This document shows positions 30,201 through 33,016 of a stretch of 64,000 nt of DNA, one piece after another. The stretch is from Dictyostelium discoideum (Eukaryota), in NCBI GenBank assembly GCA_000004695.1, contig CM000151.3, forward strand, positions 7,104,001 through 7,168,000, in the 5' to 3' direction. The position numbers were made by a program, and so were the translations under genes. Under the pieces are notes generated by a model. That model was given only the letters and a program-made list of their open reading frames with translations, did no database searches and had not been told where the DNA came from. How positions within the stretch are numbered: the first letter of the stretch is position 1; the number at the start of each line of letters is the position of its first letter.

Positions 30201-30739
30201 AACCTTGTCTACAATTGCATCAGTTGATGTTGCTCTATATTGAAAGAATTTTAATATATTTTTAATTAAATAATAACCTCTAACTAAATTCATATCATTT
30301 AATTTGTCCAATGCAATTTGTGATAATAAATTTTCACTATCATTCGATTGTTGTTGTTGTTCTTGTTGTTCTTGTTGTTGTTGATAATTAATTGGAAAAT
30401 CAGGATCTTTTTCAATGAATTTTAAAATATCATTTGAAGTGATGAATGGTAAACAATCCTTTACAACATATATAAAAGAATGATGAAATAATTGTGACAA
30501 GATAGCATTTGAGATATTAGTTGTCATTGATCTACCCAATGATAATAAATAAGGTGATGAAGTTAATGATGAATCATTTGAAGCTGATGGTGGTATTGAT
30601 GGTGACATTGATGATGGACTAAAACTACCTCTTAGCGTTTTAGACTTTTCATCTAATAAATCAAATGTTGATTCACCAATAATTAAACTATGACCATTTG
30701 GACTATTTGGCACTGCTATCATTCTCCTACAACTCCATT
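24289..30739 (-). CDS. C-terminal about 2100 aa of a ZFYVE26/spastizin (SPG15)-like giant protein; possibly the same gene as 30904..33016
   Basis: Exons 24289..29385 and 29467..30722/30739 (donor GTAAGT at 29461..29466, acceptor aaatatttag; phase 0). The first in-frame ATG is at 30722; alternatively a splice acceptor (ttggcag) lies at 30740. C-terminal blocks (YSEAREKFKYCLTP; QYQLLFEFQLYMGDNVRAGLTCVKMF; RISILCGKLKTAYLTAVQHKDRS) resemble conserved C-terminal blocks of ZFYVE26 as recalled from memory. No FYVE finger was seen. Confidence 0.45.
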
Positions 30740-30903
30740 CTGCCAATTCAATTAAATATGATAATTGATGATTAGAATGCAATAATCCGAATCAAATCTA
30801 TCCATCAATAAGTATTATAATTTTTTTTTCGAAATTTTTCATCATTATCTCCTCCATCCTCTTCTTCTTCATTTTTTTCTTCATTTTTCTTCAAAAACTG
30901 TTG

Positions 30904-33016
30904 TTATCTTGTTTCTTCAAAACCATTATTATTATTATTATTATTATTATTATTATTATTATTATTATTATTATTATTATTATTATTATTATTATTATTA
31001 TTATTATTATTATTATTATTATTATTATTATTTTTATTAAATTTTGAAATACCTTTTGATAAATCTAATAAATTTGTTAAATGTTTTCTTGAAGTAATAT
31101 CATTTTCGAAATGATCCCAACATAATAGAATTAATAATGGTAATAACTTTTCAAATGGTTTAACCACTATTAAAGCTTCTTCAAATCTTTTATTCTTTAT
31201 TAAATCAATTGATTTCTCTAATGCATATTCTAAATAATGACGATCATTCACTCTAAGGAAATGATAATACCAATACCAAAATATACTCTCTGCATTTTGA
31301 TATTCACTATCCTTTCTATCAAATGATTTTAAATTATTTTTTAAATTATTTTTATTTCTACTACTACTACTATTACTTCCACTACTACTACTATTATTAT
31401 TATTATTATTATTATTATCGTTGTTGTTGTTTTTACTATTTATATCTAATTGTTTTGGTTTTAAACTAAAATAATTTTTTAAAATCTCAAAACATTCTGG
31501 AAAATCAATTGGTTGTTGTTGTGAAGAATTCTCTTTTAATATTGATTCCTCATGTTTTAAATATGTTTTTAATGGAGTTAATGTTGGATTTGATAGTAAT
31601 GATTCATAAATCTTTAATCTTGAAATTGATTTACCATTATTATTATTATTATTATTATTATTATTATTATTATTATTATTATTATTATTATTATTATTAT
31701 TATTATTATTATTATTATTATTATTATTATTATTATTATTATTATTATCAGTTTCTAGATTTGATAATTTTGAAGAGAAAGGAATTTTTAATAATGTTAA
31801 TTCTTCAACATTATTACCAAAATTTGAATTATTTAAATTTGCTACTCTTTCTAATAATTTTGAAATTATGTTATTATCACCACTATTACTATCAACTTCA
31901 TCACTATTTATGTTGTTATTATTATTATTATTATTATTATTACTATTACTATTATCATTATTTGAAATATCTATTATTGATAATAGATTATAGGCTTCAT
32001 TATATTGAGAACTATCAATTAATAAAGTGATAACCTCTGCTACCAATGATTCTAATTGTTGAGTTACTGGATATCTAGAATAAAGTAATGAATTTGAAAT
32101 ACCATTATTATTATTATTATTATTTAATGATGATATGAATGGATTTGTAAATTGTTTAATTATGTATCTACCAAATTCAGTATTATTAATTAATATTGTC
32201 TTTAAAATTGATATTGTTGAATTACCTAATTTACTTCTTAATAGAATACTCTCCATTTGATAAATTTGTTGTTCTGATAAATTATCTATATTATTATTAT
32301 TATTATTTTTATTATTTGATTGTTGACGCTGTTGTGATAAAAGTACATAATGATATTCTCTTAATTCTTGTATAATTGGTTGAATATTTCTACTATCATT
32401 ATTTTGTTGTTCTCCAAGTAATGTATAAATTAATATAGCAAATTCAACAAGTAATAATGTTTTCTCACTAATACTAGATATAAATCCATCCTATAAATAA
32501 ATAAATAAATAAATAAATAAATAAATAAATAAATAAATAAATAAATAAATAAATAATAATTTATATTAGAATACTCTTGGGTAGAGGGGGGACAGTGGGG
32601 GGTATGATGATAAAATTATAAGATTAACAAATTACCTTATTTAATTGATAAAATTCAATTGAACATAACCAAGATAAATGAGGTGATGAAGGTATAGATT
32701 CTGATGTTAACCATGTTGATGGTGGTCCATTTCTTATCGTATGATATAGAATTGATGATATTCTGTCACAATTATTATTATTATTATTATTGTTATTATT
32801 GTTATTATTGTTATTATTATTATTATTATTATCGCTCTGTGTTTGTTTTTGTTGATTTTTTAGTTGTTGTTTTTCTTGTGATTGTAAAATTAATGCTCTT
32901 GCTAATTCAAATTGACCTAATGATAAATAATTACAAATTAATGAAATTATTTTCGAATCTTCCTCTTCACTTAAGAATGGATAGTCTTTATTTATTGTGC
33001 TCTCTGATAATTTCAT
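30904..33016 (-). CDS. N-terminal part of the same ZFYVE26/spastizin-like protein, or a separate upstream gene; 2 exons
   Basis: Exon 1 32636..33016 (MKLSESTINKDYPFLSEEEDSKIISLICNYLSLGQFELARALILQ...; donor GTAATT) and exon 2 30904..32490 (acceptor tattttatag; phase 0). The stop TAA is at 30904..30906. The N-terminal motif resembles the recalled ZFYVE26 N-terminus (FFCECLRRGEWELAQACVPQ). Confidence 0.5.
32493..32556. repeat. (AAAT)n microsatellite, about 16 units, inside the 32491..32635 intron
   Basis: Visible perfect aaataaat... repeat. Confidence 0.85.
32578..32601 (+). other. G-tract cluster (potential G-quadruplex) within the same intron
   Basis: GGGTAGAGGGGGGACAGTGGGGGG gives four G3-or-longer tracts within 24 nt. 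It is on the non-template strand for the minus-strand gene. Confidence 0.4.

Follow-up and report, generated by a model that had tools for sequence, protein, structure and literature searches.

The reading-frame break in the Dictyostelium discoideum SPG15/ZFYVE26 gene lies in a coding linker and may stem from reference-sequence errors

We analysed a stretch of 64,000 nucleotides (nt) of the Dictyostelium discoideum genome (assembly GCA_000004695.1, contig CM000151.3, positions 7,104,001 to 7,168,000; hereafter the window, numbered from its first letter), whose composition is ~20% GC with long coding (AAT)n and (CAA)n repeats. Its minus strand carries a series of four open reading frames (ORFs; 33016-32624, 32256-30904, 30782-29421 and 29361-24289) related to human ZFYVE26, also named spastizin or SPG15, which partners SPG11 and AP-5. 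Of the three gaps in this series, two are ordinary introns, and homology identifies the whole, from 33016 to 24289, as one minus-strand gene with two ordinary introns, the D. discoideum SPG15/ZFYVE26 orthologue. At the remaining gap the reading frame is broken, and an earlier note on this DNA had favoured removal of a GTTTTG...CAG intron there. We compared the gene with the proteins and genomic loci of three dictyostelid orthologues, those of Polysphondylium violaceum (CYY_008045), Acytostelium subglobosum (SAMD00019534_095520) and Cavenderia fasciculata (DFA_10723).

Exon 1 (33016-32636) starts with the ATG at 33016, bears the motif SLICNYLSLGQFELARALILQ and matches human ZFYVE26 residues 3-43 weakly (E = 0.016); tblastn with the three orthologues stops exactly at 32636. 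The earlier note had placed this motif in the ORF that ends at 30904, but it belongs to this separate exon, joined to the next through the canonical intron 1 (32635-32491; 145 nt, GTAATT...ATAG, 81% AT), the position of which is common to all three orthologues. At ~32575-32602 on the minus strand, intron 1 also contains a C-rich stretch, ccccactgtcccccctctacccaagag, followed by an (ATTT)n run, which is unusual for an intron in a genome of ~20% GC. Exon 2 extends from 32490 to an in-frame TAA at 30904 and encodes the part homologous to human residues 320-392. Exon 3 (30791-29466) is followed by the canonical intron 3 (29465-29386; 80 nt, GTAAGT...TTTAG, 94% AT), at a position shared with A. subglobosum and C. 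fasciculata, and by exon 4 (29385-24289), which supplies the C-terminal 1698 codons and the stop, with a ZFYVE26-like TPR domain at ~24295-24651.

The last-exon ORF matched the Pfam family TPR_ZFYVE26 (PF25569) at residues 1571-1689 (E = 3e-26, 92.6 bits against a cutoff of 27), and the last exon matched the human ZFYVE26 chain of a cryo-electron microscopy structure (8yad_C) at 1.3e-58, in three collinear strong stretches aligned to human residues 1461-1732, 1875-2093 and 2153-2521. Homology to the human protein is thus collinear along the entire length, with the C-terminal TPR_ZFYVE26 domain kept, and the spastizin assignment of the earlier note is borne out. The gene is very probably DDB_G0276689, the Dictyostelium SPG15 of Hirst et al. 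2011 (Table S1, PMC3191125), because the forward primer published for the promoter of the next gene, DDB_G0276687 (beiE), matches exactly at 24327-24349, within the 3′ end of the SPG15 gene, and so places the window on D. discoideum chromosome 2. The primer sequence and its -892 offset are from the supplement of PMC6198379, and the offset falls on an ATG ACC CTA start at 23457.

The broken junction is bounded on one side by a TAA at 30906-30904, where the upstream frame closes, and on the other by position 30791, where the downstream frame first opens, right after a TGA at 30794-30792. The first ATG of the downstream frame lies at 30722-30720. The stop and the first ATG had both been given correctly before; the downstream frame is, however, open from 69 nt before that ATG, and 15-16 codons upstream of the ATG (30788-30741) are conserved coding sequence. 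Protein comparison supports the view that the N-terminal and C-terminal ORFs derive from a single ancestral gene, because the orthologues of P. violaceum (2551 amino acids, 53% identity) and A. subglobosum (2388 amino acids) are single proteins that cover 100% of the joined model. The dictyostelid orthologues are 47-53% identical to it over their full length. In their loci the position of intron 1 is found in three of three and that of intron 3 in two of three, while the junction is a single uninterrupted exon in each, so that the stop and the frame breaks occur in the window sequence alone. An exhaustive search of representative proteins returned only the P. violaceum and C. fasciculata proteins, besides poly-Asn noise. 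The public C. fasciculata model (2165 amino acids) appears to be broken too, at its C-terminus: it stops early, and the last TPR_ZFYVE26 piece is entered as a 42-amino-acid gene of its own at locus positions 10571-10699 (region 9930-10700).

Directly upstream of the broken stretch lies an (AAT)38 microsatellite (31039-30925; 115 nt, 38.3 copies, 98% matches) that encodes poly-Asn. With all three orthologues, tblastn homology ended before this tract, at 31027-31063, and restarted at 30785, which is 45 nt inside the 184-nt intron proposed earlier (30923-30740). Inside the same interval, in the exon-3 frame, is the conserved block GLLHSNHQLSYLIELA (30788-30741). Its 15-codon core LLHSNHQLSYLIELA is described as helix-forming; with the adjoining EW it is identical at 13 of 15 positions to P. 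violaceum LLHANHQLSYLIEMA, and the window and the orthologues share the pattern [FV]-D-x-x-L-[LV]-H-x-N...AEW. A four-species profile aligned with human ZFYVE26 residues 320-419 in one continuous alignment over the junction (E = 1.4e-6), which puts the block at human residues ~398-419, with human ...CDELLRDACDGLWAHLEVLEWC against dictyostelid ...FDELLLHANKQLAYLVELAEWC. Because this alignment runs unbroken over the junction, the block LLHSNHQLSYLIELA can be traced by profile comparison from dictyostelids to human and is, on that basis, ancient.

The interval between the repeat and the block is coding in character, and the orthologues have no intron in it. Past the in-frame TAA (30906-30904), the exon-2 frame remains open for 32 more codons (30903-30808), which read QQFLKKNEEKNEEEEDGGDNDEKFRKKNYNTY. 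Their codon log-odds in the upstream frame is +11.0, compared with 14.4±6.3 in coding and -20.3±10.5 in non-coding windows, of which 0.7% reach such a value; in the two remaining frames the score is -6 and -28. The encoded residues correspond to the acidic linker of the orthologues, which varies from 5 to 31 residues in length here; the linker in the window is far longer than theirs, owing to the (AAT)38 tract and ~45 codons.

The TAA, at a place where a sense codon would be expected, is the first of three lesions. The second, one missing base (for example, TT for TTT), lies at 30814-30808, bounded by a TAA at 30817-30815 in one frame and a TGA at 30807-30805 in the other. This is the only interval that allows passage from the exon-2 frame to the frame of two Phe-Asp codons further on, because the Phe-Asp frame opens only at 30814 and the exon-2 frame closes at the TGA. 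The Phe-Asp codons (TTT GAT) and the third lesion occupy 30796-30786. These codons are identical to those of P. violaceum and stand in a frame that is neither that of exon 2 nor that of exon 3; just upstream of the block this third frame reads ...LMDRFDS, where the orthologues read IFDP-LLLH, VDDS-LLH and EFDEF-LVH, with an invariant Asp column. They are followed by TCGGA (30790-30786), 5 nt where two codons are expected. The one-base deficit in TCGGA is directly visible, because, in a codon-level comparison, the distance from the Phe/Val codon to the His codon is 20 nt in the window and 21 nt in each of the three orthologues, as in TTT GAT CCA TTA CTT TTA CAT of P. violaceum against TTT GAT TCG GA- TTA TTG CAT of the window. 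The minimum is three lesions in ~120 nt. With TAA changed to TTA, TT to TTT and GG to GGG, there is an open ORF of 2834 amino acids that aligns with the orthologues; these edits are illustrative, as only the number of the lesions and their intervals are constrained. Among the alternatives that the earlier note had listed, an assembly frameshift fits best, although three lesions are required and not one. Programmed frameshifting or readthrough was dismissed, since it would take three recoding events in 120 nt, without known signals.

We favour the explanation, to which we give an even chance, that the break is an artefact of errors in the reference sequence of a single gene. The stretch 30925-30786 would then be neither an intron nor an intergenic spacer, but a variable acidic coding linker leading into a conserved helix, and the three single-base lesions just downstream of (AAT)38 would be mistakes of base calling or of consensus building in the reference assembly. 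A single protein of ~2830 amino acids would be produced, presumably acting with SPG11 and AP-5 on late endosomes/lysosomes as in other eukaryotes, and peptides such as ...NYNTYLMDRFDSGLLHSNHQ... or ...NNNEWSCRR... would span the junction. We infer that artefacts are a likelier source of the lesions than real mutations because the lesions are tightly clustered, because the block before the first ATG has not decayed and because the reference is known for such clusters. All three fall within 135 nt downstream of the trinucleotide repeat of 115 nt, and the other ~8.2 kb of coding sequence has no break; we estimate at ~2e-4 the probability that two further lesions, real and independent, would land in the same 120 nt out of 8.3 kb.

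Both the gene and this class of artefact have been described already. In 102 genes, Singh et al. 2017 listed 119 'introns' of less than 5 bp that curators had made, several of them as triplets within ~100 nt (PMC5282741). In one of these genes, DDB_G0279477, two TAA codons are TTA in every RNA sequencing (RNA-seq) read and the reads run uninterrupted over a 1-bp 'intron', which the authors attributed to errors in the genome sequence (PMC5282741). The SPG15 gene has the same pattern as these 'tiny intron' cases (DDB_G0279477, clcD), with a TAA and one-base breaks clustered in a short part of a conserved ORF that is intact elsewhere, all reparable by single-base changes; the errors in DDB_G0279477 were shown by RNA-seq (TAA as TTA, missing bases). 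The three tiny introns listed at chr2:7711353-7711441 were also tried by hand as a match, and their spacing of 0/65/85 nt gives no open frame in the SPG15 gene.

Several points weigh against this explanation. Artefacts and real lesions in this strain are not separable from the sequence as given, and three errors per 120 nt are many for a finished reference. The position of the second lesion and the original codon at the TAA are those we infer in a poorly conserved linker. The weak but usable GT...AG pair, with a WCTAAT-like motif ~33 nt upstream of the AG, makes cryptic splicing conceivable, and an AlphaFold2 model of the orthologous region, at low confidence (mean predicted local distance difference test score of 41.8), adds nothing. 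An exact look-up of five ORFs or products in a protein collection found no identical protein, and word-indexed protein searches were mostly empty; metagenome scans found no independent DNA copy of the region.

The model of the earlier note takes the sequence as free of errors and removes 30923-30740 as an intron of 184 nt, leaving a protein of 2772 amino acids. Its junction, G|GTTTTG at 30924/30923 and ttggcAG| at 30741/30740, both in phase 1, was described correctly, and the join does open a frame of 2772 codons between GT...AG termini without any base change; the TCTAAT before the AG is also of the commonest D. discoideum branch-point type, ACTAAT/WCTAAT (PMC2483917). The pair is, however, not the sole phase-compatible one as had been stated, but the shortest of 131 GT-AG pairs that yield an open frame, and AAG|GTATTT at 31052, with the same acceptor, offers a better donor. 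We consider this intron very improbable, because the splice would delete the 15 codons of LLHSNHQLSYLIELA, whose sequence is conserved across three dictyostelid genera and aligns to human ZFYVE26. The block is lost with every one of the 131 pairs: GT occurs between 30960 and 30740 only at 30923 and 30898, and no AG falls between 30798 and 30740. Moreover, the GTTTTG donor departs from the GTAAGT/GTATGT/GTAAAT type, whereas ~12 likely introns in the window (both others of the SPG15 gene and about ten more) all start with GTA. The AT content is 74.5%, not the ~72% given before, compared with a mean of 89.1% for D. discoideum introns (PMC2483917, Table 2); it lies at the 33rd percentile of 184-nt windows in the gene's own coding sequence, and only 2.8% of non-ORF windows are that low. 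Gain of an intron from copied sequence or a mobile element was considered too, and the 184-nt segment matched only low-complexity sequence elsewhere in the window. Rather unlikely, in our judgement, is an atypical real intron that ends at another acceptor, from G|GTTTTG (30923) or AAG|GTATTT (31052) to GGATAG| (30798), combined with one extra reference base near 30792. Used without a base change, the AG at 30798 leads all three frames to a stop or past the conserved frame, but with a single 1-nt skip anywhere in 30793-30781 the 126-nt intron (30923-30798) gives an open frame of 2791 codons (2791 amino acids) that keeps the block (…NNN-DLFGLLHSNHQ…). Such a combination may be the curated dictyBase model. 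A curator 'intron' of 1 nt at chr2:7204462, minus strand (PMC5282741, Table S1), fits it if the skip lies in the SPG15 gene, and the curated model would then probably consist of a 126-nt GT-AG intron and a one-base skip. Linear extrapolation from the published apm4 and apm2 coordinates puts DDB_G0276689 at ~7.196 Mb, so that the entry may be that of the SPG15 gene; it is a lead only, and could equally belong to a frame-shifted FNIP-repeat gene 30 kb off. The 126-nt intron would be 74.6% AT, its donor has T at +3 and its codons in the upstream frame are used as in coding sequence, it would leave the conserved Phe-Asp codons out of frame, and it has neither a counterpart in the three orthologues nor a source sequence for its gain.

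Alternatively, the lesions could be real, recent nonsense and frameshift mutations that make SPG15 a young pseudogene, or leave a 655-amino-acid N-terminal fragment with or without a C-terminal product from the ATG at 30722. The stop and the frame breaks are, after all, present in the sequence as given, AP-5, SPG11 and SPG15 have been lost repeatedly in eukaryotes (PMC3191125), and a second minus-strand gene of the window, with FNIP repeats at ~60392, also has a one-base frame break, which might point to regional decay. We nevertheless regard real lesions as unlikely: all three would have struck within ~120 nt and spared ~8.2 kb of conserved ORF, and inactivation would have to be very recent for the block before the first ATG to be still 13/15 identical to P. 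violaceum. DDB_G0276689 is also transcribed, at 1-19 expression units over development (PMC6198379 supplement). A genuine split into two genes is disfavoured because the 182-nt spacer does not look intergenic (74.5% AT, coding-like, unlike the intergenic DNA of this genome, and without AATAAA) and because the conserved block would precede the first ATG of the second gene. Improbable as well is a scenario in which the stop and the frameshifts are real and the cell copes with them, either by splicing out, via the weak GTTTTG donor, a former coding piece that was recently 'intronised', with the conserved helix lost or rescued, or by making SPG15 as two polypeptides that reassemble.

The choice between these models matters for annotation, as work on AP-5/SPG11/SPG15 (the hereditary spastic paraplegia pathway) in Dictyostelium needs the right protein model. 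Under the reference-error explanation, that model should contain the block LLHSNHQLSYLIELA and probably the acidic linker, rather than a 184-nt intron or two genes. The partners are in place in published lists: D. discoideum SPG11 is DDB_G0268328, and its AP-5 set consists of AP5Z (DDB_G0293988), AP5B (DDB_G0282421), AP5M (DDB_G0285113) and AP5S (DDB_G0270428) (Hirst et al. 2011, Table S1, PMC3191125).

Compared with human ZFYVE26, the Dictyostelium protein has long poly-Asn and poly-Gln inserts and is without PF04784 and without the FYVE zinc finger (PF01363), which binds phosphatidylinositol 3-phosphate (PI3P). No ORF gave a FYVE match at E ≤ 0.1, in agreement with the earlier note. Human residues 1733-1874, which we take to be the expected place of the finger, have no aligned counterpart, and the Dictyostelium stretch there is a Cys-free low-complexity linker. 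We rejected the sequence 'RHSHFFIR' as a degenerate FYVE relic, since it aligns to human residues beyond 1875, after the unaligned gap. The three dictyostelid orthologues likewise lack the FYVE domain. Animal SPG15 proteins have PF01363, as they have PF04784, whereas the dictyostelid and Naegleria orthologues have neither, so FYVE marks the animal proteins rather than the whole ZFYVE26/SPG15 orthogroup. Recruitment of the AP-5/SPG11/SPG15 coat in dictyostelids and Naegleria could then not use the docking of the SPG15 FYVE domain to PI3P proposed for human cells. Biologically, this lack of FYVE in amoebozoan and Naegleria orthologues is of greater interest than the split, and it was already visible in public sequences.

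Among the other features of the window, two near-identical small Cys/Pro-rich genes of the hssA/2C/7E-like type lie inverted to each other just downstream of the SPG15 gene, at 22532-22708 on the plus strand and 23457-23174 on the minus strand. The minus-strand copy is DDB_G0276687 (beiE) by the primer match, and the published reverse primer for that gene departs from the window in the length of an A-run at ~23471, by one A (AAA against AAAA). In an AT-rich intergenic gap, the minus strand has an ORF of 311 amino acids (18636-17701; MATRSNAQKAWIYEQYLREK...) without a Pfam match, which may be a retroelement fragment. The plus strand carries a tandem array of five near-identical genes for proteins of 185-225 amino acids (40068-40625, 46076-46633, 47905-48462, 51550-52107 and 58956-59633), separated by very AT-rich spacers; the proteins start with MSDGMKYV[GS]DSLSSAVEVTKDATINMYN... 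and have YtxH/apolipoprotein-like amphipathic repeats (LEA-like). Finally, the FNIP-repeat ORFs of 358 and 204 amino acids (59692-61462, minus strand) form one repeat array with a one-base frame break in a T-run near 60385-60395, where one frame reads ...NQFSNNIFP* and the next ...IIFFHKVGNDFNQELH...; this gene is either a pseudogene or another case of a reference error.

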